NCBI GenBank assembly: GCA_050737335.1
Contig: JBOHXA010000516.1
Location: forward strand, 1-39,348
From: Limisphaerales bacterium
Lineage (GTDB): Bacteria; Verrucomicrobiota; Verrucomicrobiia; Limisphaerales; UBA11358
Direction: 5' to 3'
DNA: 39,348 bases
Each line of letters begins with the position of its first letter. Positions within the stretch are counted from its first letter, which is position 1. Position numbers and translations under genes: made by a program. Below, piece by piece: positions 5,056-31,333 of this stretch. A model generated the notes under the pieces. That model did no database searches. It was not told where the DNA came from and saw nothing but the letters and a program-made list of their open reading frames with translations.

Positions 5056-7344
5056 ATGCCCGCATCTGTTTTGAGCAACCGGATCTATTACCGGTTCAAG
5101 CCTTATTTGCCGTGGCGCCTGCGGATGGGGATGCGCCGTCTCGTGGCCCGGCGGAAACGGGACGCGTTCAGAAACGTTTGGCCGATCAATGAAGCCGCGG
5201 GGCGCATTCCCGACAACTGGCGGGGCTGGCCGGATAAAAAGAAATTTGCGCTTGTCCTGACGCACGACGTGGAGGGAGCCGGCGGACTGGCCAAATGCCT
5301 ACGCCTGATGGAACTGGAACGCCGGCTCGGGTTTCGGTCGTCCTTTAATTTCATTCCGGAAGGCAACTACACGGCGCCTTCAGAGCTGCGAAATTTGCTC
5401 GTTGAAGGCGGGTTCGAGGTAGGTGTCCATGACTTGCGCCACGACGGAAAGCTATACTGGCGCAGGAATAATTTCATGGAGAGCGCGCGGAGTATCAACC
5501 GGTACCTGGAAAGCTGGAATGCGAGCGGTTTTCGGGCTGCGTTCATGCTTCACGATCGGGAACGCTTGCATCATTTGAACATCCAGTACGATGCCTCGAC
5601 ATTCGACACGGATCCGTTTGAGCCGCAACCCGATGGTGTGAACACCATTTTTCCGTTTTGGATTTCCGATGGAAACGGAGGGGGCTATGTGGAATTGCCT
5701 TATACGCTGCCGCAGGACTCGACACTCTACCTGGTACTGGATGAAAAATCGCCGGAGATTTGGAAAACGAAGCTGGATTGGATTGTGCAGCGAGGAGGCA
5801 TGGCTTTGCTAAACGTGCATCCGGATTACTTGGGGTTTAGCGAAGACCGTGAGGCGTGCGAATATCCGGCCGTCTGGTATGAAGATTTTCTTTTGCACAT
5901 CAGAGAGCAATACGCGGGCGAATTTTGGAACCCATTGCCGAAGGAAATGGCGCGTTGGTTCAAGCAGAACTATCGTCCCGCAAAAGCGGCCGCTCCGGCC
6001 TATTATTTCAATGGCGCCAACGGGCATCATCGAAAACGGACGATGCAGGAAGTGAACGCCGCGGTGGTATTATACTCGTACTACGCGTCCGACCCGCGGC
6101 CGCGGAGGGAGGCCGAGGTGTTAAGCCAGGCCGGGGCGGAAGTGGACGTCATATGTCTTCGGAAAGACCATTCTGAACGGGCGTATGAAAAGATTGACGG
6201 TGTCAATGTCTATCGCATTCCCTTAAAGCGCCGCCGCGGAGGCAAGTTGACGTACATCTTTCAATATGCGTGCTTTTTAGCGGCGTCATTTTCCCTTATG
6301 GCGGTTTGGAGCCTCCGGAAGCGTTATCGGCTGGTTCATGTACACAACATGCCTGACTTCCTGGTATTCAGCGGCCTGATCCCGCGATTGCGCGGAGCGA
6401 AAATCATTCTGGATTTGCACGATCCCATGCCGGAGCTATTTCGCAGCATTTATCATCTGCAGGAAAACCATGTTATTGTCCGCTGGCTGAAGAAAATGGA
6501 ACGTAACAGCATCGGCTTCGCTGACCTGATCATTACTCCGAATATTGCATTCAAGGAACTGTTTAAGGCACGAAGCTGTCCGCCGAACAAAATCCAGACC
6601 GTGATGAATTCGCCGGAGGCGGCCATTTTCAACACGCCAGAAGGAACGCGCACAAACGGGCACAATGGGGTGGAACCAGTTGGCGACCGGCCGGTGGGTG
6701 GCAAAACCTTCCGGCTTATGTACCATGGTTTAATTGTGGAACGGCACGGTTTGGATCTTGCGGTGGATGCGCTTGCCAGGTTGAGGCAGAGGATTCCCCG
6801 CGTAGAACTCCACCTTTATGGCGAGCATACGGACTATTTGGATAAAATCCTTGATCTGGCCTGGCAATTGAATGTGGGCAGCGCAATTCACTTCCACGGC
6901 TTTAAAACACTGCACGAAATCGCGGAGGACATTCTCAAAGCAGACCTGGGAATCGTGCCGAACCGTCTGACTGTGTTTACGCAGATCAATTTTCCGACGC
7001 GAATCTTTGAGTATCTCGCAATGAACAAACCGGTCATCGTCCCACGGACGCGGGGAATCGGCGATTATTTCAATGAGAATGAAATCCTGTTTTTCGAGCC
7101 GGACAATGTAAACGACCTGGCGGCCCGCATTGAATGGGCATACGAGCATCCGACAGAATTGCGCCGCCTCACCGAGAGCGGACGCAGAGTTTATGAAAAA
7201 AACCGCTGGGAACTGGAGCAGGACAAATTCCTAGGAATGGTCGGTAATTTAATAAAGAAGCCGGCGCCGGCGGCGGCTGAAACGGAAAGTCTTTTGCTGA
7301 ACGGTGAGAAAGCCCATTCCCGCCCTGCCCTTCACAGAACATAA
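5056..7344 (+). CDS. Bifunctional-looking protein: N-terminal polysaccharide deacetylase-like (CE4/NodB-like) domain fused to a C-terminal GT4 glycosyltransferase
   Basis: The N-terminal half has VLTHDVEG and VGVHDLRHDG, which resemble NodB motif 1 (Asp) and motif 2 (HxxxH). The C-terminal half has GT4 features (HVHNMPDF, LMYHGLIVERHGLD, FPTRIFEYLAMNKPVIVPRTRG). I chose the ATG at 5056; the track ORF begins at a TTG at 4984 with an implausible leader. Confidence 0.7.
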   Translation: MPASVLSNRIYYRFKPYLPWRLRMGMRRLVARRKRDAFRNVWPINEAAGRIPDNWRGWPDKKKFALVLTHDVEGAGGLAKCLRLMELERRLGFRSSFNFIPEGNYTAPSELRNLLVEGGFEVGVHDLRHDGKLYWRRNNFMESARSINRYLESWNASGFRAAFMLHDRERLHHLNIQYDASTFDTDPFEPQPDGVNTIFPFWISDGNGGGYVELPYTLPQDSTLYLVLDEKSPEIWKTKLDWIVQRGGMALLNVHPDYLGFSEDREACEYPAVWYEDFLLHIREQYAGEFWNPLPKEMARWFKQNYRPAKAAAPAYYFNGANGHHRKRTMQEVNAAVVLYSYYASDPRPRREAEVLSQAGAEVDVICLRKDHSERAYEKIDGVNVYRIPLKRRRGGKLTYIFQYACFLAASFSLMAVWSLRKRYRLVHVHNMPDFLVFSGLIPRLRGAKIILDLHDPMPELFRSIYHLQENHVIVRWLKKMERNSIGFADLIITPNIAFKELFKARSCPPNKIQTVMNSPEAAIFNTPEGTRTNGHNGVEPVGDRPVGGKTFRLMYHGLIVERHGLDLAVDALARLRQRIPRVELHLYGEHTDYLDKILDLAWQLNVGSAIHFHGFKTLHEIAEDILKADLGIVPNRLTVFTQINFPTRIFEYLAMNKPVIVPRTRGIGDYFNENEILFFEPDNVNDLAARIEWAYEHPTELRRLTESGRRVYEKNRWELEQDKFLGMVGNLIKKPAPAAAETESLLLNGEKAHSRPALHRT

Positions 7345-12422: not shown

Positions 12423-13343
12423 ATGAAATACGTCTTGCTTACGTCCGCGCGAAACGAGGAAGCCCATATTCAAAAAACGATTGAATCAGTCGTGAGGCAA
12501 AGCCAACTGCCCGAACATTGGGTGATCGTAGATGACGGCTCGGTGGACCGGACGGCGGAGATCGTTGAGGATTATGTGGGGCGATTCCCGTGGATTTCAC
12601 TGATCCGGCGGGTGAATCGGCCCAACCGGGATTTCGGGGGAAAGGCAGACGCCGTGAACCGCGGGTTCAAATTCCTGGAAACAGTGGAATTCGACGTGGT
12701 TGGAAACGTGGATGCGGACATTTCGTTTGAGCCGGATTTAATGGAGTTTTTAATGCGGCAATTTGCCGCCGACGGCCAATTGGGCGTGGCGGGCGCGCCT
12801 TATATTGAGGGGAACTTTGATTCAGCGCGCGATAGTTTCGAAGGTGAGAATTTTGTGGCCGGACAACTGCAGCTCTTTCGCCGTCAATGCTTTGAAGAGA
12901 TTGGCGGATACACAAAAAGCCGCGCCGGCGGAGTGGATTGGATCGCCGTGATGAGCGCGCGGATAAAAGGCTGGAAAGCGCGGTCGTTCGCTGAGAAGCG
13001 GTTCATCCATCATCGCATGATGAGCACCGCCGAACGTGGCATGCTTGCGGCCCATTTTTCGTATGGACAAAAGGATTATTATCTAGGCGGCTCGCCCATT
13101 TGGGAAGTTTTCCGCGTGGTTTTTCGCGCGATGAAATCTCCCTATTTCATCGGAGCCGCGGCGATGTTATGCGGTTATTGCCATGGGGCAATAACGCGAA
13201 TGGAGCGGCCGGTTTCGGCCGAGCTGATGCGATTTCACCGTCACAATCAGCTCAATAAATTGAAAGCGATCATTAAATCTTTGCTGCGGTTTAAGAAGGT
13301 GGACAATTTCCGCCTGGAAACCGGGCAAACCAAATTCTCTTGA
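12423..13343 (+). CDS. GT2-family glycosyltransferase
   Basis: LLTSARNEEAHIQKTIESV, VIVDDGSVDRT and VDADI motifs. A purine-rich RBS (GAAGGAAAAG) lies upstream. Confidence 0.75.
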   Translation: MKYVLLTSARNEEAHIQKTIESVVRQSQLPEHWVIVDDGSVDRTAEIVEDYVGRFPWISLIRRVNRPNRDFGGKADAVNRGFKFLETVEFDVVGNVDADISFEPDLMEFLMRQFAADGQLGVAGAPYIEGNFDSARDSFEGENFVAGQLQLFRRQCFEEIGGYTKSRAGGVDWIAVMSARIKGWKARSFAEKRFIHHRMMSTAERGMLAAHFSYGQKDYYLGGSPIWEVFRVVFRAMKSPYFIGAAAMLCGYCHGAITRMERPVSAELMRFHRHNQLNKLKAIIKSLLRFKKVDNFRLETGQTKFS

Positions 13344-13354
13344 GCCGTTCAACC

Positions 13355-14218
13355 ATGACAAAACCGTCATATAGAATTGGCCTGGCAACGGACTTTAATT
13401 CGAGCAACCTCGCCGCGCTGCTCCGAAGGAGCCGTGATGCCGAGGTCCATTGCGTAGAGACGCCGTACGGCCAATTGACCCGGTTGCTGTCGGAACCGAA
13501 CGATCCTTTCTGGAAAGAGGCGGGCGAGGCCGTATTGCTCTGGAGCTTGCCCCAACTGGCGATTCCGACATTCCAAAAGGTTATCCGGTTCGAGGAATTT
13601 TCCGTGGACGAACTGCTGGAGCAGGTGAAATCATTTTGCGGACAGATTGAAAAAATCCCCGCGGAAGTGTCAACGCTGCTTTTGCCTTCCTGGATAATGC
13701 CGTGGGCGTCACGGGGACTGGGACCATTGGATTTGAGCAGCGTGAGTGGCGTGGCGAATGTGCTGGGCCGGATGAACCAAAGACTTGTTGAACATTTTCG
13801 GAGCCAAACACGGATCGTGCTGCTTGATGCTACTCGCTGGCTTGGTTCCTTGCGCCGGCGCGAGGCGTGCCCTGAGCAAATCGAAGAAATCAGGACCGGA
13901 ATCAAACCGGCTGAGTGGGTCAAAGCGCCTGATGGCATCTCATTGCTTCTGGAACTGAAATCAGGCCAAAGCCAAACCATCAGAACGATCTTCCGGGACA
14001 CGATGGAAAACGGCGCCGCGTCGGAGAATACTTTTGCCGGGGCGGGGGTCATTCATTGGGTGAAAGCGACATTGCGCCGTTATTTTTGCGAAATTCGGGA
14101 CAATTATGTCATGGGCAAAAGATTTTCAGAAGACCGCGACCGAGGCACCGGCCTTCCAGGCAGCGGTCTTCCCGGCGGCAACTTTCCCGGCAGCGGTCTT
14201 CCGGCAAGCGCACGATAA
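13355..14218 (+). CDS. Hypothetical protein; N-terminal ~170 aa resembles the N-terminal domain of FkbH-like/HAD-IIIC proteins, with no HAD domain present
   Basis: YRIGLATDFNSSNLAALL...YGQLTRLL..PNDPFW...AVLLWSL matches the pattern (K/R)IxLLSNFT...GxxQ...D.V.L.L seen at the start of FkbH-like proteins. I saw no DLDNTLW-type motif in any frame downstream. The C-terminal half has no recognisable motif but keeps purine-first codon periodicity. The tail is a G/P/S repeat. ATG at 13355 chosen (the track TTG at 13340 overlaps the upstream stop). Confidence 0.5.
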   Translation: MTKPSYRIGLATDFNSSNLAALLRRSRDAEVHCVETPYGQLTRLLSEPNDPFWKEAGEAVLLWSLPQLAIPTFQKVIRFEEFSVDELLEQVKSFCGQIEKIPAEVSTLLLPSWIMPWASRGLGPLDLSSVSGVANVLGRMNQRLVEHFRSQTRIVLLDATRWLGSLRRREACPEQIEEIRTGIKPAEWVKAPDGISLLLELKSGQSQTIRTIFRDTMENGAASENTFAGAGVIHWVKATLRRYFCEIRDNYVMGKRFSEDRDRGTGLPGSGLPGGNFPGSGLPASAR

Positions 14219-14298
14219 AACCTCTTTTCGGTCAAGCGATCATTTCTTCAAATTTCGGCAAACAGACAAACGTTTCAGAATTCTCACAATTCTCACTT

Positions 14299-15567
14299 AT
14301 GCGCACATTGGCTCACTCAACCGCCGTACAGACGGCTTTGGAGAATTTCTCAGCCTGGCTGGGAGATTTTGGCGAAGTCTCCTATGATCATCAATCGTTT
14401 TTTGCCGGGCCAGTGGGGCGGGCGGCAAAATCATTTTATTACCGACACAAAACGGTGGGAGCAGCCGTAGTGGCGCCGATGGTCTTTTGCGAGGCATTTT
14501 TTCCCGCGGCCCGCCAATGGTTTCATCATCCGATGCGGCTGCCGATCGCCGATGCTCATTATGCGATGGGTTTTGCCTGGCTCTTTGAGGCGACCGGCAA
14601 CGAGTTTTATCTTCAAAAGGCGATGCATTTTCTGGAAGTCCTGCGAAAGACCCGCTGCCCGGCATTCAAGGAATTTAGCTGGGGCTACCCTTTTGATTGG
14701 ATGACGCAGGCAGGGCCCATTCGAGCGGGCACACCGTTGATTACCACCACACCGTACGTTTTTGAGGCGTTCATGCAGGTCGAACAATTGCGTCCGCACT
14801 TGAAATGGCGCCGCATTCTCGAATCCATCGCGCGGCATATCCGGTCAGACTATAAAGACTTCAAGGTTTCCGACAAGGCTATGAGCTGTTCCTACACGCC
14901 GTACGGGAAGGTGGGAGTGGTGAATGCTTCGGCATATAGAGCATTTGCGCTCACCAGCGCGGCCAAATTCTTTAATGACGACCGTTTTCTTGAAGCGAGC
15001 CTGCCAAACTTTAATTTCGTGCTGGAATCTCAAAACCCGGACGGTTCCTGGCCATACGCCATGGATGGCAAACGCGGGTTCGTGGATCACTTTCACACCT
15101 GCTTTGTCATGAAGTCTCTCGCAAAAATTTACCTGCTTACAGGAAACGAGGATTGCATGAAAGCCCTCGACCGTGGGGTCGAGTTTTATACGCAGAATCT
15201 TTTTTCAGAGGACGGGATGCCCAGGCCGTTTGCAAAAGCTCCGCGCCTGACGGTGTATCAGCACGAATTATATGACTGCGCCGAATGCATCAATCTATGC
15301 CTCCTGTTAAGAAAATACTTTCCACAACTCGAAAAAACTTTGGAAGGGGTCACAGCCGGGATTTTGAACCACTGGGTCAAAGCCGATGGTTCATTTCGTT
15401 CCCGGCAACTGATGTTTGGCTGGGACAACGTGCCGATGCACCGTTGGGGACAATCGCAAATGTTCCGGAGTCTGGCGCTTTACTTGTACGAAGCGCAGGC
15501 GACGGACTCCCAAGTTTATGAAAACCTCAATTCCAAATTCTATGTGCGGGATCTGCGGGCAGCTTAA
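14299..15567 (+). CDS. Uncharacterised protein with alpha/alpha-toroid (prenyltransferase/terpenoid-cyclase-like repeat) features
   Basis: ESQNPDGSWPY, VDHFHTCFVMKSLAKIYLLTG and NASAYRAFALTSAAKFF resemble (alpha/alpha)6-barrel repeat motifs. ATG at 14299 chosen, because the 81 aa upstream in the track ORF are R/S-rich junk. The 3' end overlaps asnB by 26 nt. Confidence 0.5.
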   Translation: MRTLAHSTAVQTALENFSAWLGDFGEVSYDHQSFFAGPVGRAAKSFYYRHKTVGAAVVAPMVFCEAFFPAARQWFHHPMRLPIADAHYAMGFAWLFEATGNEFYLQKAMHFLEVLRKTRCPAFKEFSWGYPFDWMTQAGPIRAGTPLITTTPYVFEAFMQVEQLRPHLKWRRILESIARHIRSDYKDFKVSDKAMSCSYTPYGKVGVVNASAYRAFALTSAAKFFNDDRFLEASLPNFNFVLESQNPDGSWPYAMDGKRGFVDHFHTCFVMKSLAKIYLLTGNEDCMKALDRGVEFYTQNLFSEDGMPRPFAKAPRLTVYQHELYDCAECINLCLLLRKYFPQLEKTLEGVTAGILNHWVKADGSFRSRQLMFGWDNVPMHRWGQSQMFRSLALYLYEAQATDSQVYENLNSKFYVRDLRAA

Positions 15568-17446
15568 TTTTGAAAGGACCGAGCCGGTGAATCCTGAAAC
15601 GATTCACCGAATGTCGCGCTCGATGCTCCACCGCGGGCCTGACGACGAAGGCGATTTTATTTCCGGGCCGATCGGCCTGGGCTTCCGGCGCCTGTCCATT
15701 ATTGATCTGGCTGGCGGCCGCCAACCGATGTCGGACGCAGAAGGCACCGTGCAGGTGGTGTTTAACGGAGAAATTTACAACTTTCGCGAGTTGCGCCGGG
15801 ACCTGGAATCCCGCGGGCATAAATTCCGAACCCGTTCTGACACCGAAGTGATCGTCCACGGTTATAAGCAATGGGGCACGGGGGTATTTAACCGGTTGAA
15901 CGGGATGTTTGGGGTTGCCATTTGGGACGCGAGGGACCGGCGGCTGGTTTTGGCGCGCGACGCCATGGGGATCAAACTGATTTATTACACGGTCGAAAAT
16001 GGCCAATTAACCTTTGGCTCCGAGATCCGCCCCGTCCTGGCGGCCCGAACTTCGAAGCCCGAAATTTCGCCCGCGGCGGCGGCCCTTTTCCTGCGCTTTC
16101 GCTATACGCCCTCGCCGCAGACGATTTTCAAAGGGATAAAAAAGCTGGCCGCGGGCACGATGCTAATCGTTGAAGGCGGTGTTTGCCGGGAACAGCGTTG
16201 GTATGATTTCAGCCCGTCTCCTTTTCCCGAGACCATGAAAGATTCGGAAGCGGCGGAGGAGCTGTTGGACCTGTATCGTCGGTCAGTCCGCCGCCACCTG
16301 TGCGCCGATGTGCCAGTGGGGATTCTCCTGAGTGGCGGCCTGGATTCGGCATTGCTGCTGGCACTGATGAACGAGCACGGACGTCATTGGCCGGCATACA
16401 CGGCCGGTTATGGGAAGGGATTCGCGGATGACGAACTGCAAACGGCGGCGCTTTCGGCATTACGGATGGGAGCGCGACACGTAGCGGTGAAATTGGACCA
16501 GAATGAATTCGAGAGATCGCTTCCGAAGATTGTGGAATTACTTGAGGAACCCGTCGCCAGTTCGTCCATTGTGCCGATGTATCATGTTTGCAAGCGCGCA
16601 AGGGAGGACGTAAAAGTAGCGTTGATCGGACAAGGCCCGGACGAACTTTTTGGCGGGTATAACCGGCACCTGGGCGTCCATTATGGAAACTTGTGGCGGC
16701 GAATGCCGCGACCCTTGCGGTCGCGAGTGAGTTCAGCGATATTACGCCTGCCACGAAACGAGACTTTAAAGCGCGGCGTCCAATCGCTCTCGGTCGAAGA
16801 CCGGGTGGCCCGGTACGAAAGTATTTTCTCGTTGCATCCGGCTCAAATGGTCAAGGACCTTTTTCGCCCTGAATTTTCTCTAAATGGCGACAGCGAGTTA
16901 TCCCACTATCTTGAACCCATTGTGCCGCAAATGGAACGGACCGATGAGTTGGGCGGCTTTCAACTGATGGAGATTCGTTCGTCGCTGCCCGATGAGTTGC
17001 TGATGTACGCGGATAAGCTCTCGATGGCGCACAGCCTGGAGGCGCGAGTTCCCTACCTGGACCGTCCTGTGGTTGAATTCGTTCAACGGCTTGGCGCCAA
17101 TCAAAAAATCCGTTACGGCATCCGCAAATGGCTGCACCGGCGCATCTGTTTCAAAATGCTTCCCCGCTCGATTCTGTTTCGCAAGAAACGTGGCTTTGCG
17201 GTCAACGTGGTGGACGACTGGTTCGACACGCGTCGAGACGGTATGTTTTCGCAAATGCTGCTGGACCAGGACTCGCTCATCTATGAACAATTGAGGCCTG
17301 AGCCTGTGCGCGCGCTTCTGGACCAGCATCGTGCCCGCCGCCAGGACAATCACAAACTGCTGTTCAGCCTGGTGATGTTCGAACAATGGCTGCGATGCAT
17401 CCGCTCGCAACAAAACAATAACTTCGCCGGGGCGCTTGCCGCTTAA
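15542..17446 (+). CDS. asnB: Asparagine synthase (glutamine-hydrolysing) family amidotransferase, canonical
   Basis: Begins MCGICG (N-terminal nucleophile Cys). Also has HRGPDD, RRLSIIDL, NGEIYN, SDTEV and the PP-loop SGGLDSALLLAL. The start must be this Met because Cys2 has to become the N terminus. Confidence 0.9.
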   Translation: MCGICGQLNFERTEPVNPETIHRMSRSMLHRGPDDEGDFISGPIGLGFRRLSIIDLAGGRQPMSDAEGTVQVVFNGEIYNFRELRRDLESRGHKFRTRSDTEVIVHGYKQWGTGVFNRLNGMFGVAIWDARDRRLVLARDAMGIKLIYYTVENGQLTFGSEIRPVLAARTSKPEISPAAAALFLRFRYTPSPQTIFKGIKKLAAGTMLIVEGGVCREQRWYDFSPSPFPETMKDSEAAEELLDLYRRSVRRHLCADVPVGILLSGGLDSALLLALMNEHGRHWPAYTAGYGKGFADDELQTAALSALRMGARHVAVKLDQNEFERSLPKIVELLEEPVASSSIVPMYHVCKRAREDVKVALIGQGPDELFGGYNRHLGVHYGNLWRRMPRPLRSRVSSAILRLPRNETLKRGVQSLSVEDRVARYESIFSLHPAQMVKDLFRPEFSLNGDSELSHYLEPIVPQMERTDELGGFQLMEIRSSLPDELLMYADKLSMAHSLEARVPYLDRPVVEFVQRLGANQKIRYGIRKWLHRRICFKMLPRSILFRKKRGFAVNVVDDWFDTRRDGMFSQMLLDQDSLIYEQLRPEPVRALLDQHRARRQDNHKLLFSLVMFEQWLRCIRSQQNNNFAGALAA

Positions 17447-17450
17447 TTCC

Positions 17451-18446
17451 ATGTCTGCTAATTCCATCTCATTGCCCAATGGCCTTGCCGAAATCCGCGT
17501 TAAGGGTAAAACCACCCTCGTCCCGTCGGTAACCATCGAGGGGCGAACCGTCATTGTCACGGGCAAGTGGCTCAAGCTGGCGTCTATTCGTGACGAAATT
17601 GTTGTGGAGGGAGAATTGGTGAAAGATCCGGTCTTATTTACCGGGAAATTGAGAAACAGCGAACTGAAGGCCGATGTTTTTACATTTTTTCAAAGACCGC
17701 CCGATGTCTCGCCCAGGTTCAACTTTCATTTCGAATGGAACAATTACGCCGCGATTCCCATCGCCACATTCGAAAAATGGTGGGAATCCGTGCCGCAGGA
17801 AACCCGAAAAAATGTCAGGCGCGCCGCCAAACGCGGAGTCGTTGTCAAACTTGCTCCATTCGACGACCAACTGGCGCGGGGCATTCATAAGCTGTGCAAC
17901 GAGACGCCGGTCCGCCAGGGCAAGCCATTTTGGCACTTTGGAAAGGATTTTGAGACGGTCAAACGTGAACACGCGACCTATTTGGAACGGAGCGACTTCA
18001 TTGCCGCATACGTCAAGGACGAACTCATTGGATTTATCAAAATGGTTCATGTGGACCGCGTCGCTTTCATTCTTCACATATTGGCGGCGAACGCGCACTA
18101 CGACAAACGACCCATTAACGCGCTCATTGCCAAGGCTGTGGAAATGTGCGCGCTTAAAGGAGTTGGATATTTTGTGTATGACCAATATACCTACGGCAAG
18201 AAGACGCGCAGTTCCCTGGTCGAGCTCAAACGGCGAAATGGTTTCGAGCCGGTCAGCTTTCCACGCTACTACGTGCCATTGACGTGGAAAGGCAAAATCA
18301 TCGTCGCACTGCGCCTGTACCGGGGGGCCGTGGGGCTTTTGCCGGCGCCGCTATTAAAGATCGCCATCGCCGCCCGGGACCGGGTGTACGAAAAAAAGGC
18401 GAGGTCCATATTGCCCAACTCCGGATGTGACCCACAGAACAAGTGA
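17451..18446 (+). CDS. GNAT-fold protein of FemAB/Acetyltransf_6-like type (second copy in the locus)
   Basis: WWESVPQETRKNVRRAAKRGVVVK parallels RRAIRKAEKSGVHVE of 1574-2692. FIAAYVKDELIGFIKMV and LIAKAVEMCALKGVGYFVYD fit a GNAT core. The ATG is 5 nt after the asnB stop. Confidence 0.6.
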   Translation: MSANSISLPNGLAEIRVKGKTTLVPSVTIEGRTVIVTGKWLKLASIRDEIVVEGELVKDPVLFTGKLRNSELKADVFTFFQRPPDVSPRFNFHFEWNNYAAIPIATFEKWWESVPQETRKNVRRAAKRGVVVKLAPFDDQLARGIHKLCNETPVRQGKPFWHFGKDFETVKREHATYLERSDFIAAYVKDELIGFIKMVHVDRVAFILHILAANAHYDKRPINALIAKAVEMCALKGVGYFVYDQYTYGKKTRSSLVELKRRNGFEPVSFPRYYVPLTWKGKIIVALRLYRGAVGLLPAPLLKIAIAARDRVYEKKARSILPNSGCDPQNK

Positions 18447-18459
18447 CCCGATCATTTTT

Positions 18460-18535
18460 GCCGGTGTAGCTCAACGTCAGAGCGGCTGATCTGTAATCAG
18501 CAGGTTGGAGCGTTCAATTCCTCCCGCCGGCTCCA
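18460..18535 (+). tRNA. tRNA-Thr(UGU)-like gene with non-canonical D loop, anticodon loop and T stem; CCA encoded
   Basis: Hand-folded cloverleaf. Acceptor GCCGGTG/CGCCGGC; D stem GCTC/GAGC with loop AACGTCA; anticodon stem GCTGA/TCAGC with loop TCTGTAA (TGT at 18492-18494). Variable loop AGGTT; T loop TTCAATT closed by G-C; T stem GGAG(C)G/CCTCC; discriminator T; CCA. Most of the sequence is cross-checked against the antisense track ORF 18477-18677. Confidence 0.7.
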
Positions 18536-18563
18536 ATTTCAATAAACCCGTCAATCGCCAAGT

Positions 18564-20360
18564 ATGCCTGGAATTGCTGGAATCATTTCTCACGATGCCG
18601 CGGCCGGTCGCCGCGCCAGCGCGGGACAAATGGTGGCGAGTATGCTGACCGAAAAATTTTATAAATCGGCTACGCAATGCGTGCCCGAATTGGGAGTATC
18701 GGCCGGTTGCGTATGGCTGGAAGGTTCGAACGATGGGATTTTTTCAGACGAAAGCAGCGCTATTCTGCTGGTTTTCCATGGGGAATGCTTTATCGATTCT
18801 GAATTGGCAACGGGCGATACAATCATCCGTCTCTATAAAGCGGAAGGCCTGCAATTTCCAAAAAGACTCAATGGCCTTTTTTGCGGTCTGCTCATTGACA
18901 GGGCCGCTGGCGATATAATCCTGTTCAATGATCGCTACGGCATGCAACGGATTTATATTCATTCGGAAAACGGACAGGTTTATTTCGCAAGCGAGGCCAA
19001 GGCGTTGCTTCGGGTCCTGCCGGGATTACGACAGTTTAATCTGGGCGGCCTGACGGATTTTTTGACATTCGGCTGCATCCTGAATTGGAAAACGCTGTTT
19101 CGGGGAATTGAGATCATGCCTGGGGGCTCGGTCTGGACTTTCGGAAACGGCAAAGCGCGTAAAGAAAGTTATTTTTCGGCCCAAACGTGGGAATCGCAAC
19201 CGCCATTGCCGCCGGCGGAATTTCAGGATCGTTTCCAAGAAATCTTCAAACATATTTTGCCGCGCTATTTCAAATGTCAACCGAGTCAATCGCGAGTGGG
19301 GATTGCGCTGACCGGCGGCCTGGATACGCGGATGATCATGGCCTGCCGACCGCGAAACAACGGTCATAGCACCTGCTACACCTTTACCGGCAACAATGGC
19401 CGGACTCTGGATGACAAAATCGCCGCCCGTGTCGCGGCTGCTTCGAATTTTGAGCACAGCCTGTTGCGCCTGGATGACGGTTTCTTTTCAAACTTCAGAT
19501 ATCACGCGGACATGACCGTGTATGCCACCGACGGTTGCGCGGGCATTTTTAACGCTCATGAGCTCTATCTCAACCGCAAGGCCAGGGACGTTGCGCCGGT
19601 GCGTCTGACTGGAAATTTTGGCAGCGAAATTTTGCGCGGTGTTTCGACGTTTAAGCCGCTTCCCCTGGCGCCCGAGCTTTTGAATGAAGATTGGAGACCG
19701 CGCGTCAACGCTTGCAAAGCATCATGGTCCCACGAGAGCGCAAATCCCGTTACGTTTGCCGCATTCAAGGAAGTCCCCTGGCACTTATACGGCAACCTCG
19801 CGGCGGGCCGCTCTCAATTGATATTCCGCAGCCCCTATCTGGACAATGATCTGGTTGCGCTGGCATTTCAATCGCCCGAGCAGTGCCGGGGGTCCTCCCT
19901 GCCCTGCCTCAATCTGGTCCGCGCCAATGATACGAGTTTGAGCGAAATTCCGACGGACCAGGGTTTCGCGGGGCGGAATTCGGGCTTGGGATTTGTCACG
20001 CGGCGGGCCTTTGCCGGCGTGACGTGCAAACTCGATTATTACACCACCGCCGGGCTACCCGGGCCGCTGTCGCCATTCAATTCGATTTTCAAGCCGGTCG
20101 CCGAAAAATTGAAAATTGCGGGCATGCACAAATTTTTGCGCTACAGCAGCTGGTTCCGGGGTGAACTGGCGCCATATGTTCGGGATGTTCTGGCCGCCCC
20201 AAGCGTTCGCGGCACTGGCATTTGGAACCCCGAATTTATTGACCGGATGGCGTCAGATCACATGAGTGGGCGGCGTGATTATTCCGCCGAAATTAACGTT
20301 GTGATGACAATCGAAGCAATCGAACGATTGTTTTTTCGCGATCGGTTGCCAGGGGCCTGA
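18564..20360 (+). CDS. Asparagine-synthase-family protein lacking the glutaminase nucleophile (MPGIAG instead of MCGICG); PP-loop domain retained
   Basis: The N terminus is MPGIAGII. HRGPD, RLxIxD and NGEIYN are absent or replaced (HGECFI). LNGLFCGLLIDR and YFASEAKALL keep the Ntn fold. The PP-loop variant is LTGGLDTRMIMA. Confidence 0.8.
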   Translation: MPGIAGIISHDAAAGRRASAGQMVASMLTEKFYKSATQCVPELGVSAGCVWLEGSNDGIFSDESSAILLVFHGECFIDSELATGDTIIRLYKAEGLQFPKRLNGLFCGLLIDRAAGDIILFNDRYGMQRIYIHSENGQVYFASEAKALLRVLPGLRQFNLGGLTDFLTFGCILNWKTLFRGIEIMPGGSVWTFGNGKARKESYFSAQTWESQPPLPPAEFQDRFQEIFKHILPRYFKCQPSQSRVGIALTGGLDTRMIMACRPRNNGHSTCYTFTGNNGRTLDDKIAARVAAASNFEHSLLRLDDGFFSNFRYHADMTVYATDGCAGIFNAHELYLNRKARDVAPVRLTGNFGSEILRGVSTFKPLPLAPELLNEDWRPRVNACKASWSHESANPVTFAAFKEVPWHLYGNLAAGRSQLIFRSPYLDNDLVALAFQSPEQCRGSSLPCLNLVRANDTSLSEIPTDQGFAGRNSGLGFVTRRAFAGVTCKLDYYTTAGLPGPLSPFNSIFKPVAEKLKIAGMHKFLRYSSWFRGELAPYVRDVLAAPSVRGTGIWNPEFIDRMASDHMSGRRDYSAEINVVMTIEAIERLFFRDRLPGA

Positions 20361-21638: not shown

Positions 21639-22629
21639 TGCTGAAACATGGATCTCCGATGCGATTAATTCGGCGCTACGCCAAACCTGGCCGCGCAAGG
21701 AAATTATTGTCGTGGATGACGGTTCCACCGATGGGACACTCGCCGTCGCGTCACAATTCTCAAAGGACGGCGTCAGCGTGGTTTCCCAAAGGAACAGGGG
21801 CGCCTCCGCGGCGCGGAACCACGCCTATTCCTTATGCCATGGCGATTATATTCAGTGGCTTGATGCGGACGATATATTGGCGCCGGACAAGATTTCACGA
21901 CAAATGGAATTTGTGGAATGGGTCAAAAATCCCCGCCTGCTCTTCTCGTCCGAATGGGGAAGGTTCCGCTATCGGACCCGAAATGCGGTATTTAATTCGA
22001 CCGTTCTTTGGCAGAGCTTGCCGCCGGTCGAATGGCTTCTGCGGAAAATGGCATTGAATGTGTGGATGCAACCCGGAAGCTGGCTGGTCAGCCGGGAACT
22101 CGCCGAGGCGGCGCAACAGTGGGACGAACGCCTCTCGTTTGACGATGACGGAGAATATTTTTGCAGGGTCATTTCCAGAAGCCAGGGGGTGCCATTCGTG
22201 CGCGGCGCCAAAACCTTTTATCGGGTTAGCGGCCCTGAAAGTTTGAGCACCGTTGATAATTCAGCGAAAAAAAAGGACTCAGCCTGGCTGTCCATCCAGC
22301 TGCAAATCCAATCCCTACGGCAGCTTGAGGACAGCGAGCGCACGCGTAACGCAGCCGTGAAGTTTTTGCAGACATGGTTCACGATGTTCGATCCGTATCG
22401 GATGGACATCGTCGAAGAAATGCTGGAACTGGCGCAGGCCCTGGGCGGCGAAGTCCATCGTCCGCGGCTGGTCGAGGCACTGCGTTGGAAATGGGCGTGG
22501 CTGGAAGGCATTTTTGGACGTCGCGCCGCGTATTGGGCACAGAAAAGTCTTCCTAAATTCAAATACGACACACTTTGCGCCGCGCGGTTGTGCATGGAAA
22601 AAACATTGTATCAGCTTGGGTACGAATAA
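21601..22629 (+). CDS. GT2-family glycosyltransferase (paralogue of 7415-8431)
   Basis: VSILTPAYNAETWI, IVVDDGSTDGT and WLDADD motifs. It is collinear with 7415-8431 along the whole length (GDYIQxLDxDDxLAPDKIxRQM, NPRLL, RTRNA, DxDGE(F/Y)F, KKK, EDSxRTR). Confidence 0.8.
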   Translation: MKPLVSILTPAYNAETWISDAINSALRQTWPRKEIIVVDDGSTDGTLAVASQFSKDGVSVVSQRNRGASAARNHAYSLCHGDYIQWLDADDILAPDKISRQMEFVEWVKNPRLLFSSEWGRFRYRTRNAVFNSTVLWQSLPPVEWLLRKMALNVWMQPGSWLVSRELAEAAQQWDERLSFDDDGEYFCRVISRSQGVPFVRGAKTFYRVSGPESLSTVDNSAKKKDSAWLSIQLQIQSLRQLEDSERTRNAAVKFLQTWFTMFDPYRMDIVEEMLELAQALGGEVHRPRLVEALRWKWAWLEGIFGRRAAYWAQKSLPKFKYDTLCAARLCMEKTLYQLGYE

Positions 22630-22637
22630 TACAAAGA

Positions 22638-23456
22638 ATGAACGCGACTTTAGTCATCGAAGCGGGTCACACTGAACGCCAATACTGGCGCGACCTTTGG
22701 AGGTTTCGTGAGCTGTTTTACCTTCTGGCCTGGCGCGATTTCCTGATTCGCTACAAGCAAACGGCTGTCGGGATCGCCTGGGCGCTCATTCGCCCGCTTT
22801 TAATGGTGCTGGCGGTCACACTGGTGGCAAAAGCGGGTAAGATGGCGACTGGCGGCGCGCCGTATGCCCTTTTTGCCTTTTGCGGTCTGCTGCCATGGCA
22901 ATTCTTCTCGGCGGCCATGTCTGAAAGCGGCAACAGCCTCGTCAATAATTCCAATCTGATATCAAAGATTTATTTTCCGCGACTGGTCGTTCCGGCCAGC
23001 AGCGTCATCGTCAGTTTCACCGATTTTCTCGTCGCCGCCGCTTTTCTGGTTCCGTTGATGTTTTACTATCACCTCGCGCCCCCGCGCCAAATCCTCTTTC
23101 TGCCGCTCTTTGTGTTACTGAACTTTGCCCTGGCCATTGGCGCGGGATGCTGGATCGCGGCCCTGACTGTCAAATATCGAGATTTTCGGTTTATCGTGCC
23201 GTTCATCGTTCAATTCGGCATGTTTGTTTCGGGCGTTTTCCCCATCACAAAGCACTCGCATGAAATGATACGCCTCGTTTTCTCAATCAATCCCACGGTC
23301 GGCATCATTGATGGCTTTCGTTGGTGCATCCTGGGAGGCGGCAACTCCGTGCAAGCTTCCGAACTGGTTCTATCATCTGTTGTCACGGCGTTGCTCCTGC
23401 TGAGCGGTGTGCGCTATTTCCGAAAAACCGAGCGCTCGTTCGCGGATATCATTTAG
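22638..23456 (+). CDS. wzm: ABC-2 type polysaccharide export permease
   Basis: YWRDLWRFRELFYLLAWRDFLIRYKQT is the characteristic N-terminal motif of Wzm/KpsM/TagG permeases, followed by about 6 hydrophobic segments. ATG at 22638 chosen. Confidence 0.85.
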   Translation: MNATLVIEAGHTERQYWRDLWRFRELFYLLAWRDFLIRYKQTAVGIAWALIRPLLMVLAVTLVAKAGKMATGGAPYALFAFCGLLPWQFFSAAMSESGNSLVNNSNLISKIYFPRLVVPASSVIVSFTDFLVAAAFLVPLMFYYHLAPPRQILFLPLFVLLNFALAIGAGCWIAALTVKYRDFRFIVPFIVQFGMFVSGVFPITKHSHEMIRLVFSINPTVGIIDGFRWCILGGGNSVQASELVLSSVVTALLLLSGVRYFRKTERSFADII

Positions 23457-23471
23457 AGGCCACTCACTTAA

Positions 23472-24818
23472 ATGATTATGTCTCAATCCGACACAGTTAT
23501 TGCCGTCCGAAACCTTTCGAAATGTTATTCGATCGGCCATCTCAATTACGCAAGCGACAGCAGCATGAGATACAATCCGCCCGGTCTGCGCCATGCTGTT
23601 GAATTCATGGTGCGGAACCCGCTGGCTTGGTGGAAAAACAGAAAAGTCCGGCAAGAAAATTTTTGTGCGCTTAAAGATGTTTCATTTGAAGTGAATGCCG
23701 GCGAGGTCGTGGCCGTAATTGGGCGCAACGGCGCGGGCAAATCCACGTTATTGAAAATTTTAAGCCGCATCACCGAGCCGACCAAGGGGCGCATTGAAAT
23801 CACGGGCCGCGTGGCCAGCCTGCTTGAAGTGGGCACTGGATTCCACGCTGAATTGACCGGACGGGAAAACATTTTTCTCAACGGGGCGATCCTGGGAATG
23901 ACTCGCGCGGAAATCAAGCGGAAGTTTGACGCGATTGTGGCCTTCTCTGAAGTGGAAAAATTCCTCGACACGCCCGTCAAACGCTTCTCCAGCGGCATGT
24001 ACGTGCGGCTCGCCTTTGCCGTGGCCGCGCATCTCGAACCTGAAATTTTGATTGTGGATGAGGTTCTGGCGGTCGGCGACAGCGCGTTTCAAAAGAAATG
24101 TCTTGGCAAGATGCAGGAAGTATCCCGAAACCAGGGCCGCACGGTGTTGTTTGTCAGTCACAACATGTCCGCCGTGCTGCAATTGACGACACGCGCTGTT
24201 GTGCTGGATAAAGGCTGTGTGATTTTTAATGGTCCGACTGAAAAGGCCGTCGAGGAATATGCCGGGGCCATCGGCAACGATTCCACGGTGTTTTTTCCCG
24301 TCGAAAACGCGCCGCGGAAATATGCGGGCACCGGCGCCATGCGTCTTTTGTCGTTTCGCTTTGACCGGGCGCTGCCCATTTTTTCGGCCAACGAGGACTT
24401 TCATTTTATCGCCCGGGTCCGCGCAAACGAAACTGTGCCATCCATTCGCTTTAGCATGACGGTTTTCTCACCTGAAGGCGTTCCCATCGGCACCTGCTTC
24501 GGCGCAGAGCGGCCCGGCATGCGGCACGGTGAAGAAATGGAATTTGAAATTTCCATTGCCCGGCCGCGCCTGGCGCATGGCCGCTATTGCTGCGGAGTGT
24601 CCATTGGCAAAGGCGATCATCGGGTGGGCATGGTGGATTTTGACACGGTCCTGGACACGCTGCCCTTCGAAGTTCGTCCTGAAGAAGGGGACGGCGGAAC
24701 TATTGCCGAATGGTCCAGAGGCTGGGGGTCGGTGATTCTACCGGACTTAAAATGCCGGCCGGCGCTGGCCGCGGCATCGGAAGCCATGACGGACAACGTT
24801 GAAATGCTTCCCGCCTAA
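23472..24818 (+). CDS. wzt: Polysaccharide ABC exporter ATP-binding protein with C-terminal Wzt_C-like carbohydrate-binding domain
   Basis: Walker A GRNGAGKST, signature FSSGMYVRLAF, Walker B ILIVDEVLAVGD, H-loop VSHN. An extra ~190 aa beta-rich C-terminal domain is present (RLLSFRF...FHFIARV...FSMTVFSPEG...YCCGVSIG). Confidence 0.85.
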   Translation: MIMSQSDTVIAVRNLSKCYSIGHLNYASDSSMRYNPPGLRHAVEFMVRNPLAWWKNRKVRQENFCALKDVSFEVNAGEVVAVIGRNGAGKSTLLKILSRITEPTKGRIEITGRVASLLEVGTGFHAELTGRENIFLNGAILGMTRAEIKRKFDAIVAFSEVEKFLDTPVKRFSSGMYVRLAFAVAAHLEPEILIVDEVLAVGDSAFQKKCLGKMQEVSRNQGRTVLFVSHNMSAVLQLTTRAVVLDKGCVIFNGPTEKAVEEYAGAIGNDSTVFFPVENAPRKYAGTGAMRLLSFRFDRALPIFSANEDFHFIARVRANETVPSIRFSMTVFSPEGVPIGTCFGAERPGMRHGEEMEFEISIARPRLAHGRYCCGVSIGKGDHRVGMVDFDTVLDTLPFEVRPEEGDGGTIAEWSRGWGSVILPDLKCRPALAAASEAMTDNVEMLPA

Positions 24819-29055: not shown

Positions 29056-30369
29056 ATGAAATTCAAAACAACGACGGCTTTCCCGCCCCTTAAAAGGTAT
29101 TTCCTGCCGCCGCTCCTGGGTTTTTTTATTCTGAGCGCGAGAGCCAGGGGACAACAGGAAACGGTTCAGCCGCTTGCTCCGCCGGTCGAGTCCACCTCGC
29201 AACTAGCCATGACCAACAGCTTCCAATTGTTTCCAATCCACGCAGTCCCTGCGCCGCCGCAACCCTATGAACCTTTTCAATGGGACCGGTTCATTGTGCG
29301 CCCGCACATGGATTACCAATTCACCAAGGCTTACCATCTCCTTGCCGCGCCGAGCAACCAGGTAGATACAACGATCCAAAGGGTTTCTCCGGGTTTATTA
29401 TTTGATCTCGGCCCGCATTGGGCACTGGACTATACCCTTTCCCTTGCCTGGTATTCCAACACCAATTTCGGCACAGAGGTTGACCATTCTATCACCTTAA
29501 CGGGCCAAACAGTGTATGGGGACTGGAACCTGGGATTTTTACAATCTGTCCTTTTGACCCGCTCCCCGCTCATTGAATTCGGCGGTCAAACCTACCAGGA
29601 CTATTTTAACACTTCGGTCACGGGCCACCATGAGGATAATCAATATGTCTCCGAGGACCTTGACCTTAACCAAAACATTCAGATTTTTCCCGGCGGCGGT
29701 TTCGAAGACATGAGCTCCTGGTCCACGGTGGACTGGTTAAATTATCAGCCACAGTCCCATTTCAATATCGGCATAAGCCCCGGCCTGGGGTATAATGACG
29801 CCGTTTACGGTCCCGACTCCGCGTTCGAGCAGGCCCAGACACGGGTGAATTGGCGACTGACGGACATCCTAAGCGTCCAATTGTCCGCCGGCGTTGTTGA
29901 AACCGAATTTCTTGGCAGCGAAGGCAACGGCAATTTGTTCAGCCCCATTTACAGCGGCACCCTTGATTTTAAACCGTTTTCTCAAACCGAAATCTCTGTT
30001 TTTGCAAGCCGTTATTCGTCACCCTCGATGCTGGTGGATGAATACGCCGAGGGATCAACCGTCGGATGCTCGATCGGTCAGCGGTTACTTGGACAATTCT
30101 ACGTTGGCGCCCAGGCCTCTTACAGCGACCAAAAGTATATTGGCACCGCTATCGCCGTCATCCCGATTAGTCCGACGGTGGACGTGATTGAACGCCTCAA
30201 CGAAGGTCGCCAGGACAAATATTACACTTTTTCCGCCCGCCTGGGCCATTCGTTCCTCCAACGTGGCAATATTTCCGTCTTTTACCAATACAGCGGCGAC
30301 AGTTCCTCGGTAAGTGGATACAGCTTTGCCGGCAACCAATTTGGCGGAGAAGTCAGTTATAGCTTTTGA
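29056..30369 (+). CDS. Outer-membrane beta-barrel protein (PEP-CTERM-locus associated porin-like)
   Basis: Signal-like N terminus. Alternating hydrophobic/polar strands rich in Y/G/S/N/Q. The C terminus GGEVSYSF ends in Phe, as in OMP beta-signals. Confidence 0.65.
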   Translation: MKFKTTTAFPPLKRYFLPPLLGFFILSARARGQQETVQPLAPPVESTSQLAMTNSFQLFPIHAVPAPPQPYEPFQWDRFIVRPHMDYQFTKAYHLLAAPSNQVDTTIQRVSPGLLFDLGPHWALDYTLSLAWYSNTNFGTEVDHSITLTGQTVYGDWNLGFLQSVLLTRSPLIEFGGQTYQDYFNTSVTGHHEDNQYVSEDLDLNQNIQIFPGGGFEDMSSWSTVDWLNYQPQSHFNIGISPGLGYNDAVYGPDSAFEQAQTRVNWRLTDILSVQLSAGVVETEFLGSEGNGNLFSPIYSGTLDFKPFSQTEISVFASRYSSPSMLVDEYAEGSTVGCSIGQRLLGQFYVGAQASYSDQKYIGTAIAVIPISPTVDVIERLNEGRQDKYYTFSARLGHSFLQRGNISVFYQYSGDSSSVSGYSFAGNQFGGEVSYSF

Positions 30370-30376
30370 AAAATCC

Positions 30377-31333
30377 ATGTCGGTCAAAGAGATCAAGTTG
30401 GAGTCAGAAAAGAGCAGCCTCGTTTTGAAAGCTGAGCGCTCTTGCGAGAGGATTAATAAATCGCGGCTAAGTTTCTTTTTTCTGGCCGCGGCCCTGCTCA
30501 CGCTCGTATTTTCCGGGCCGCTCTATCATCTGCTGCAACTGGCGACCCGCGATGATTTATATACGGATATACCGTTGGTGCCAATGCTGACTTTGTACCT
30601 CATCTGGCTGCGCCGCCAAAGGATGCCCCGTTCTTTTCGACCCGCGAGCCTTCCGGGTGCGTTGCTTTCCCTGGCCGGCCTGTTGCTACTGGCAGTGTGG
30701 TGGATTGCTTCCCATCAAACTTCACAGGCGTTGGAAAATGATCTGGCCGCAAATATTCTTGCGTTCCTGCTGTTGTTGACTGGCATTTGCTTCGTTTTCC
30801 TTGGTAAAGCCTTTATGCGCGTGTATGCCTGTCCAATAGCGCTGCTGGCTTTCACCATTCCATTTCCCACGGTTTTGCGCCAGTGGATCGAGACACTATT
30901 GCAGCACGGTTCGGCCACATTTGCCACTCTATTCTTTCACATTGCAGGCGCTCCAGTCACACGCGAGGGACTGAATTTCCGATTGTCGGACATGGTCATA
31001 CAAGTGGCGCCCGAGTGCAGCGGCATCCATTCGACAGTCGTATTGGTTATCGTCAGCATCGTGGGCGGCTGGCTGTTTCTGCGTTCCAAGTGGAAGCGGA
31101 CAACACTGGTGCTGGCCGCAATACTTCTGGGGTTTATTCGAAACGGGTTCAGGATCTTCGTCATCGCCGAGCTTTGCATGTCCGACGGCCCGCAAATGAT
31201 TAACTCCCCAATCCATCGGCACGGTGGGCCGCTCTTCTTTGCCTTGTCACTGATCCCCTTCTTTTTCCTGTTGCTTTATCTCCGAAAGACAGAGGGACCA
31301 AACCGTGAACCGTCAACCAGACAATCGTTATGA
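30377..31333 (+). CDS. Exosortase (EpsH/XrtA-like transpeptidase)
   Basis: Polytopic membrane protein with the three exosortase signature regions: VAPECSGIHS (Cys), IRNGFRIF (Arg) and IHRHGGPLFF (His). ATGA overlap with prsT. Subtype not assignable by eye. Confidence 0.85.
   Translation: MSVKEIKLESEKSSLVLKAERSCERINKSRLSFFFLAAALLTLVFSGPLYHLLQLATRDDLYTDIPLVPMLTLYLIWLRRQRMPRSFRPASLPGALLSLAGLLLLAVWWIASHQTSQALENDLAANILAFLLLLTGICFVFLGKAFMRVYACPIALLAFTIPFPTVLRQWIETLLQHGSATFATLFFHIAGAPVTREGLNFRLSDMVIQVAPECSGIHSTVVLVIVSIVGGWLFLRSKWKRTTLVLAAILLGFIRNGFRIFVIAELCMSDGPQMINSPIHRHGGPLFFALSLIPFFFLLLYLRKTEGPNREPSTRQSL

Follow-up and report, generated by a model that had tools for sequence, protein, structure and literature searches.

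A tRNA(Thr)-like gene beside a predicted aminoacyl-tRNA-dependent transferase suggests non-ribosomal amino acid attachment in bacterial polysaccharide loci

Why should a tRNA gene lie in the middle of a locus for polysaccharide assembly? The question is posed by a 39,348 bp contig from a metagenome-assembled genome (MAG) of a Limisphaerales bacterium (Verrucomicrobiota), the whole of which we call the window, where a tRNA(Thr)-like gene sits between an open reading frame that we call ORF X, or X, and a gene for an AsnB-family protein that we call AsnL. The preliminary description of this DNA had proposed that these three genes, with a second AsnB gene upstream, form a module within an exosortase and exopolysaccharide (EPS) locus, and all four elements lie where it had placed them, on the forward (+) strand:

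15542-17446, +: glutamine-dependent AsnB-type amidotransferase with an MCGICG start and GATase_7 and Asn_synthase domains
17451-18446, +: ORF X, 331 aa, a predicted aminoacyl-tRNA-dependent transferase by its fold, not by its sequence
18460-18535, +: non-canonical tRNA(Thr)-like gene, found by ARAGORN and Rfam RF00005
18564-20360, +: AsnL, a Cys-less AsnB-family protein and predicted ATP-dependent amide ligase, with weak GATase_7 and Asn_synthase matches

The gap between ORF X and the tRNA is 13 nucleotides (nt) and that between the tRNA and AsnL is 28 nt, and no promoter- or terminator-like sites above shuffled expectation were found in the X-tRNA-AsnL stretch, which is consistent with a single transcript. 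This tRNA was the only one detected in the whole window by ARAGORN and Rfam. As argued below, we consider it fairly probable that X, the tRNA and AsnL constitute a module through which an intermediate of the polysaccharide pathway receives an amino acid, in most cases threonine, without the ribosome.

We searched a single genome from each GTDB species for X patterns and obtained 80 loci, each fetched with up to 6 kb on either side of X; the MAG labels of these loci, which can be wrong, are Verrucomicrobiota, Acidobacteriota, Alphaproteobacteria (Methylocella, Beijerinckiaceae, Hyphomicrobium), Nitrospirae and others. ARAGORN and a family covariance model together placed a tRNA immediately downstream of X in 69 loci, out of about 78 that were informative (11 loci were negative, 2 of which end right after X), and in tblastn searches with all window proteins about 68 of the 80 showed X followed by the tRNA and then AsnL. 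Five loci have X and the tRNA without AsnL (L044, L048, L054, L059, L073), indicating that X is the primary partner of the tRNA, and five others have X and AsnL without the tRNA (L037, L040, L041, L202, L203). The tRNA is on the opposite strand to X in L059 and L073, and three MAGs with two X loci each have two X-linked tRNAs. The conserved core is X plus the tRNA, and AsnL is a very frequent third partner. The glutamine-dependent AsnB occurs directly upstream of X solely in Verrucomicrobia-type loci, where it is a lineage-specific neighbour, and the earlier idea that two bracketing AsnB enzymes belong to the unit was not upheld.

The association was also tested in reverse, through a metagenome scan seeded on the 3' 24 nt of the tRNA alone, which returned 120 stretches. 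These held 84 X-type tRNAs, with X upstream on the same strand in all 63 that had at least 1 kb of upstream sequence and AsnL downstream in 44 of the 47 that had enough downstream sequence. Twenty-five canonical tRNA-Thr(CGU) genes with the same 3' end were recovered as well, and X was beside none of the 12 with enough flank; the other 11 were partial copies or other sequences, none with X. Co-occurrence of the tRNA and X in related genomes, which the preliminary description had put forward as a check, is thereby borne out from both directions and in several phyla, and the linkage is far beyond chance.

Departures from the standard arrangement were seen among the same loci. Tandem duplicate tRNAs lie between X and AsnL in L006 (7012-7087 and 7202-7277) and L034 (7015-7090 and 7178-7253). 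A variant architecture, mostly Alphaproteobacteria-labelled (L044, L048, L051, L054, L059, L073), has GT4-like, U503-like (see below) and GT2 genes followed by X, with no AsnL; here the tRNA is further off, on the opposite strand (L059, L073), or absent (L051). The X frame extends up to or through the tRNA gene in many Acidobacterial loci (L039, L042, L045, L078, L080, L102, L154, L161). In L045, X occupies 5947-7002 and the tRNA 6920-6994, with the stop codon 6 nt past the CCA, so that excision of the tRNA would cut the X mRNA ahead of its stop codon. Partial 3' halves of tRNA-Thr(CGU) beside unrelated sequence (L081, L089, L110, L122, L129, L131, L139, L156, L171) look like att-site remnants of elements integrated into housekeeping tRNA-Thr.

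What kind of tRNA is linked to X? The window tRNA, which ARAGORN reads as Thr(UGU) with the anticodon at position 33 and which has an encoded CCA, scores 52.1 bits against Rfam RF00005 (threshold 29). It has C33, U73, a D loop (AACGUCA) without G18G19 and a bulged C in the T stem, and it departs in U33, G18G19 and the uninterrupted 5-bp T stem from a canonical elongator. It had been called non-canonical on first inspection, and the same deviations recur throughout the family. In an alignment of 59 genome-derived sequences, 99.4% of cells of the cloverleaf are paired and 11 of 21 pairs have changed on both sides, far above shuffled and slid controls. All 59 sequences share G1-C72, C2-G71, G4-C69, G5-C68, U73, U54, U55 and A58; U6-G67 is present in 54, an encoded CCA in 57, and G35 and U36 in 53 each. 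Position 33 is U in 42, C in 13 and A in 4 (non-U in 17/59), and position 34 is U in 28, C in 24 and A in 5. G19 is G in 12/59, and GG occurs anywhere in the D loop in 11/59. An unpaired pyrimidine stands between T-stem pairs 52-62 and 53-61 in 59/59, the three outer T-stem pairs covary, and the variable region is 4 nt in most members. X-linked tRNAs score 42-58 bits with the Rfam tRNA model versus 67-73 for canonical tRNAs from the same scans. In the canonical tRNA-Thr(CGU) genes sampled alongside, the acceptor stem reads GCCGGCG/CGCCGGC, positions 73 and 33 are both U, the D loop contains GG and there is no bulge; the X-linked acceptor stem departs from theirs at pair 6-67 alone. With a near-identical acceptor stem and the canonical features lost, the X-linked tRNA looks like a diverged tRNA-Thr paralogue.

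Threonyl-tRNA synthetase (ThrRS) of Escherichia coli and Thermus thermophilus depends on identity sets that comprise the top acceptor pairs G1-C72 and C2-G71 and the anticodon nucleotides G35 and U36. In general terms, recognition of the top acceptor pairs and of anticodon positions 35/36 by ThrRS has been described (PMC9976931). The X-linked family carries these bacterial identity elements, at the frequencies given above, and they agree with threonine as the amino acid suggested earlier from the anticodon; judged by its nucleotides, the tRNA would most likely carry threonine. Because the ThrRS determinants are kept while the features used by the ribosome and EF-Tu are relaxed, it resembles a non-proteogenic adaptor more than a tRNA that decodes.

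The anticodon itself is not constant. Near-identical tRNA bodies of close relatives carry UGU, CGU or AGU, and A34 is unusual for bacterial tRNA-Thr. NCC anticodons are found in L027, L029, L032, L044 and L073; L032 also has G3-C70 in its acceptor stem, as in tRNA-Gly, which together suggests an amino-acid switch, and the L073 tRNA has G at position 33 and a UCC anticodon. Pro115 of X (window numbering, motif LPQETRKN) is kept in 63/64 of the other loci and is replaced, in the five NCC loci, by Ser in three and Asp in one, counts that carry no phylogenetic correction; X may be co-evolving with the tRNA or with the identity of its amino acid.

We turn to X as the likely user of this tRNA. Its product is 100% identical to the NCBI protein ACREFR_13800 and has no significant match among Pfam, NCBIfam and PDB sequences (FemAB, E = 0.23). 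The family is large, with 5224 clusters at 90% identity and 1042 representatives at 50% identity (E <= 1e-3 in both cases), and its source-named clusters are all 'hypothetical'; a plasmid search for X gave no match. An AlphaFold2 model built from 25 homologues (pLDDT 75, pTM 0.68) was compared with PDB by Foldseek, and the ten best matches were all aminoacyl-tRNA-dependent transferases, namely Sbb17/Sba18, MprF with other alanyl- and lysyl-phosphatidylglycerol synthases, and FemX (E 2e-11 to 1e-9, TM 0.48-0.55), versus TM 0.30-0.41 for generic CoA-dependent tandem GNATs such as VipF and MAB_4324. A Pfam scan of 40 diverse members gave weak matches to PF13480 in 12 (best 1.7e-6), to PF02388 (FemAB) in 6 (best 2e-4), to generic Acetyltransf_1 in 8 and to LPG_synthase_C in 1. 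The model predicts X to be a tandem-GNAT, Fem/MprF/Sbb17-like aminoacyl-tRNA-dependent transferase, for which the adjoining conserved tRNA gene would point to an aminoacyl-tRNA as the acyl donor. The description of X as FemAB-like is thus supported by structure and by the weak family-wide Pfam matches, and not by the sequence of the window protein; 'Fem-like' describes its fold correctly, and probably its ancestry as well.

The further Fem-like gene reported near position 1574 was confirmed (TIGR03019 at 9e-35 and 120 bits, below the cutoff of 260, with PF13480 and PF02388). X has no TIGR03019 match, its hhalign comparison with the 1574-2692 protein was non-significant (probability 2.4%), and no tRNA adjoins the 1574-2692 gene. 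X is a separate, unannotated family outside TIGR03019, and the result therefore says nothing direct about the PEP-CTERM-associated FemAB family on which it had been expected to bear.

AsnL, the third partner, begins with MPGIAGI and not MCG. M1-P2-G3-I4 and the PP-loop TGGLDT are invariant in 28 homologues, and the structural model (pLDDT 71) matches TsnB9, AsnB, beta-lactam synthetase and carbapenam synthetase by Foldseek (E 6e-15 to 1e-11). AsnL thus has the PP-loop and two-domain fold of the AsnB superfamily and lacks its N-terminal catalytic Cys. With Pro in place of that Cys, no canonical glutamine-derived ammonia is to be expected from AsnL, and by analogy it should be an AsnB-fold adenylating enzyme that joins an adenylated carboxylate to a substrate amine. 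The strictness of the MPGI start, at 18564-18575 in the window and in all AsnL homologues, exactly where the N-terminal nucleophile (Ntn) Cys normally sits, suggests that the N-terminal proline may have a role of its own rather than marking mere loss of function. The upstream AsnB (15542-17446) scores above the cutoff for TIGR01536 (441 bits vs 267) and below it for TIGR03108 (471 bits vs 816.9).

To what would the amino acid be attached? The exosortase and polysaccharide setting proposed earlier is confirmed by the other genes of the window:

50-1572, +: WbpB-like UDP-GlcNAc 3-dehydrogenase-type oxidoreductase (NF040723, 1e-40) and hexapeptide N-acetyltransferase (NeuD/PglB/VioB-type, 1e-20)
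1574-2692, +: Fem-like gene of the PEP-CTERM-associated FemAB type (TIGR03019, PF13480, PF02388)
12423-13343, +: GT2 glycosyltransferase (PF00535), with homologues in 55/80 X loci
14299-15567, +: 'U503' protein, start uncertain and taken at MRTLAHS, with homologues in 40/80 X loci
22575-24818, +: Wzm/Wzt glycan ABC exporter (PF01061, PF00005, PF14524)
30314-31333, +: exosortase of the EpsH family (PF09721, 1.3e-44), which marks the wider locus

The rest of the window encodes Wzz/tyrosine-kinase, several GT2 and GT4 glycosyltransferases and a Wzy_C protein, as well as a large TPR protein, a seven-transmembrane histidine kinase and PEP-CTERM-type regulators. Apart from AsnL, the partners that recur across phyla are GT2, U503, Wzy_C (32 loci), the WbpB-like oxidoreductase (26 loci) and an acetyltransferase (18 loci), and no homologue of the window exosortase was found in any of the 80 loci as fetched. 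Directly upstream of X, 28 Acidobacterial loci (e.g., L063 4071-5951) encode a fusion of a YdjC-type deacetylase with GT2, and one distant X locus has a DegT aminotransferase. The YdjC-GT2 fusion could make a free sugar amine for X to acylate, and the WbpB-like and acetyltransferase genes could supply a sugar amine acceptor. Since these neighbours make or expose sugar amines, and since PDB 9wqy, one of the best structural matches to X, is the aminoacyl-tRNA-dependent enzyme Sba18 with streptothrisamine bound, a nucleotide- or lipid-linked sugar that offers a free amino group would be the most economical acceptor. The conserved neighbours, with the YdjC-GT2 fusion and the WbpB/DegT/WbpD-type amino-sugar genes among them, favour a sugar amine at least as much as the amidated uronates suggested at first, although AsnL could make a uronate amide.

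U503 has no NCBIfam family and, in Pfam, only a sub-threshold Pec_lyase (alpha/alpha toroid) match; its listed ORF (14056-15567) overlaps that at 13340-14218, the start codons being uncertain, and the product of the latter is conserved and likewise has no NCBIfam family. The Wzt ATPase (23472-24818) ends in a Wzt_C carbohydrate-binding domain (PF14524). In ABC-transporter-dependent O-antigen systems Wzt_C recognises a chain-terminating cap, and an aminoacyl substituent could be such a cap. Wzm/Wzt stands together with Wzy_C and Wzz/tyrosine-kinase genes in the window, two export logics side by side.

Taken together, we propose the following route. The tRNA would be a diverged tRNA-Thr paralogue that keeps what ThrRS needs (the top of the acceptor stem, G35, U36 and the encoded CCA) and has given up features for EF-Tu and the ribosome (positions 33 and 34 vary, G18G19 is usually missing and the T stem is bulged), and would thereby be excluded from translation. 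It would be co-transcribed with its users, excised from the operon transcript and charged by the housekeeping ThrRS. The fold of X, its linkage to the tRNA and its gene neighbours lead us to infer that X moves the threonyl group from the tRNA to a nucleophile on a sugar of a glycan intermediate, most likely a free amine that a deacetylated sugar or a 3-amino sugar carries in a nucleotide- or lipid-linked precursor. AsnL may then adenylate a carboxylate and couple it to an amine within that substituent, such as the alpha-amine of threonine, forming a second amide, which is the weakest step of the scheme. The few lineages with an NCC anticodon probably donate glycine instead.

Several points weigh against this proposal. 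The window X has no significant sequence likeness to Fem proteins, and its model is only moderate (pLDDT 75, TM about 0.55). A linked tRNA is absent from about 10% of the loci (L033, L037, L040, L041, L049, L051, L060, L066, L202, L203), genuinely so by the family covariance model and by reading of the intergenic DNA, and X can therefore apparently use a tRNA encoded elsewhere. Charging by ThrRS is deduced from identity elements established in other bacteria. All sources of X are MAG or metagenome contigs, and a search for a cultured host among the members of X clusters yielded metagenome-derived entries only. The tRNA evidence covers X loci and metagenome stretches rather than the tRNA sets of host genomes, and therefore bears only indirectly on the refuting case named at the outset, that of a sole housekeeping isoacceptor; the identity of the acceptor and the role given to AsnL are guesses.

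Among the alternatives, two survive best. In the first, AsnL uses the tRNA directly as a carrier: an adenylated carboxylate of a sugar (e.g., a uronate) or other compound is attacked by the alpha-amine of Thr-tRNA, and X transfers the N-acyl-threonyl group to a sugar amine in a PEARL-like relay, giving threonine-bridged polysaccharides. Such a relay would account for the position of the tRNA exactly between X and AsnL in about 85% of loci and for an AsnL that keeps its ATP site with no ammonia source, and a private tRNA would presumably shield a peptidyl-tRNA-like intermediate from translation factors and peptidyl-tRNA hydrolase. Against it, the alphaproteobacterial-type loci hold X and the tRNA without AsnL, and we know of no AsnB-family enzyme that uses an aminoacyl-tRNA; we regard this route as unlikely. 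If it were true, it would mean cross-linked or branched polysaccharides, with a peptidoglycan-like logic in exopolysaccharides and a private tRNA invisible to translation.

In the second, X does use an aminoacyl-tRNA and its target is not a glycan at all, being instead a membrane lipid, as for MprF, or else a protein, as for L/F-transferase or Fem enzymes; an exosortase substrate would be one example. The presence of MprF and other aminoacyl-phosphatidylglycerol synthases among the best fold matches, the one X member with an LPG_synthase_C match, and the exosortase and PEP-CTERM-type regulators of the window all speak for such a target. However, the partners that recur across phyla are glycosyltransferases, the YdjC deacetylase fusion, amino-sugar genes, Wzy_C and Wzm/Wzt, X with its 331 aa has no MprF-like transmembrane flippase domain, and no homologue of the exosortase was found in the 80 fetched loci, each covering up to 6 kb on either side of X, and we give a lipid or protein target only a small chance.

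Far less probable is that the tRNA-like element is never aminoacylated and serves as a cis-acting RNA, an RNase P/Z punctuation site or a regulatory decoy for the expression of X and AsnL. Its place inside the operon with short gaps, the X frame that runs through it in some Acidobacterial loci and the loci that retain X and AsnL without it would fit such a role. Yet punctuation needs neither an invariant 7-bp acceptor stem, U73 and an encoded CCA nor a constant G35/U36 while positions 32-34 drift, and the element stays by X in loci without AsnL, even on the opposite strand (L059, L073), from where it cannot process the operon mRNA.

Equally hard to credit is an ordinary housekeeping tRNA-Thr placed by chance in polysaccharide loci, as an island integration site or a bldA-like decoding supply: it would explain the passing Rfam score, the Thr anticodon, the encoded CCA and the nearly canonical acceptor stem, but not gene order and strand kept on both sides of the tRNA across phyla, the reverse association (63/63 vs 0/12 for canonical tRNA-Thr), the non-U33 in 29%, the A34 variants, the loss of G18G19 and the universal T-stem bulge, anticodons that vary among close relatives with NCC in a few, a tRNA copy number that tracks X loci per MAG, or the lack of ACA enrichment in the module (0-13% ACA codons in module genes vs 19% elsewhere in the window). 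Of its two forms, local decoding supply was ruled out by the unremarkable Thr codon usage of the module, and an integration site by the att-like partial tRNA-Thr 3' halves, which are solely of the canonical type and never beside X.

With threonyl transfer to a glycan intermediate as the favoured reading, what would be new? Non-ribosomal use of aminoacyl-tRNA by Fem-fold enzymes is already known; new is the combination of an operon-embedded private tRNA, a new transferase family, an AsnB-like partner and a glycan context. To our knowledge, no dedicated tRNA has been found encoded beside its enzyme. A literature search, which reached few subscription journals, found no tRNA-linked Fem-like gene in EPS or O-antigen loci, and a 2026 review of aminoacyl-tRNA-dependent enzymes in natural product biosynthesis does not contain 'polysaccharide', 'dedicated' or 'tRNA gene'. 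The findings suggest that in soil bacteria a surface sugar polymer receives an amino acid by way of a private tRNA that plays no part in translation. If so, this would be a second, independent and very widespread lineage of dedicated non-proteogenic tRNAs, with thousands of metagenomic instances in dominant soil phyla, and it would provide amino-acid-decorated polysaccharides, for which the enzymes are ill defined, with a specific route that can be put to the test. The tRNA would also be a naturally orthogonal scaffold, one that a housekeeping synthetase charges and that is probably kept off the ribosome, and the module flags a systematic annotation error, in that X-linked tRNAs are called ordinary tRNA-Thr.

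How does the module compare with known systems? The closest parallel is the non-proteogenic tRNA-Gly that serves FmhB/FemAB in staphylococci, and such tRNAs have so far been detected solely in S. aureus and S. epidermidis (PMC7826273). As in the pentaglycine bridge system of FmhB, FemA and FemB, the X-linked tRNA is paralogous, keeps its synthetase identity, has oddities in the D and T arms and would serve a Fem-fold transferase outside translation. Unlike the staphylococcal tRNA, it is of the Thr type, adjoins the gene of the transferase, lies in polysaccharide rather than peptidoglycan loci together with an AsnB-like ligase, and is found in Verrucomicrobiota-, Acidobacteriota-, Alphaproteobacteria- and Nitrospirae-labelled loci; the staphylococcal tRNAs are marked by a UGY T-loop, the X-linked ones by the T-stem bulge, by a G19 that has been lost and by positions 33/34 that are left free. 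In structure, X is matched best by Sbb17/Sba18 of streptothricin-type pathways (PDB 9wqw, 9wqy; E 2e-11, TM about 0.53-0.61), which share 13-14% identity with it and belong to secondary-metabolite clusters rather than to glycan assembly and export loci. MprF and the other aminoacyl-phosphatidylglycerol synthases (DUF2156) have the same tandem-GNAT aminoacyl-tRNA transferase fold, and one X member matches LPG_synthase_C weakly, but X lacks a membrane flippase domain, and its loci showed no neighbouring genes for lipid synthesis. We know of no linked tRNA gene at the Sbb17/Sba18 clusters. The TIGR03019 FemAB of the window (1574-2692) resembles X as a Fem-like GNAT of exosortase/EPS loci and in a common short basic helix motif (RKN.RRA.KRGV vs grrairkaeksgv), and is set apart from it by the comparisons given above. 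Finally, AsnL shares the two-domain fold and PP-loop with the Cys-less AsnB ligases (beta-lactam synthetase, carbapenam synthetase, lasso-peptide cyclases and TsnB9) and probably, by analogy, their chemistry of carboxylate adenylation followed by amide formation; what distinguishes AsnL from them is its invariant Met-Pro-Gly-Ile N-terminus and its strict link to a tRNA and a Fem-fold gene.

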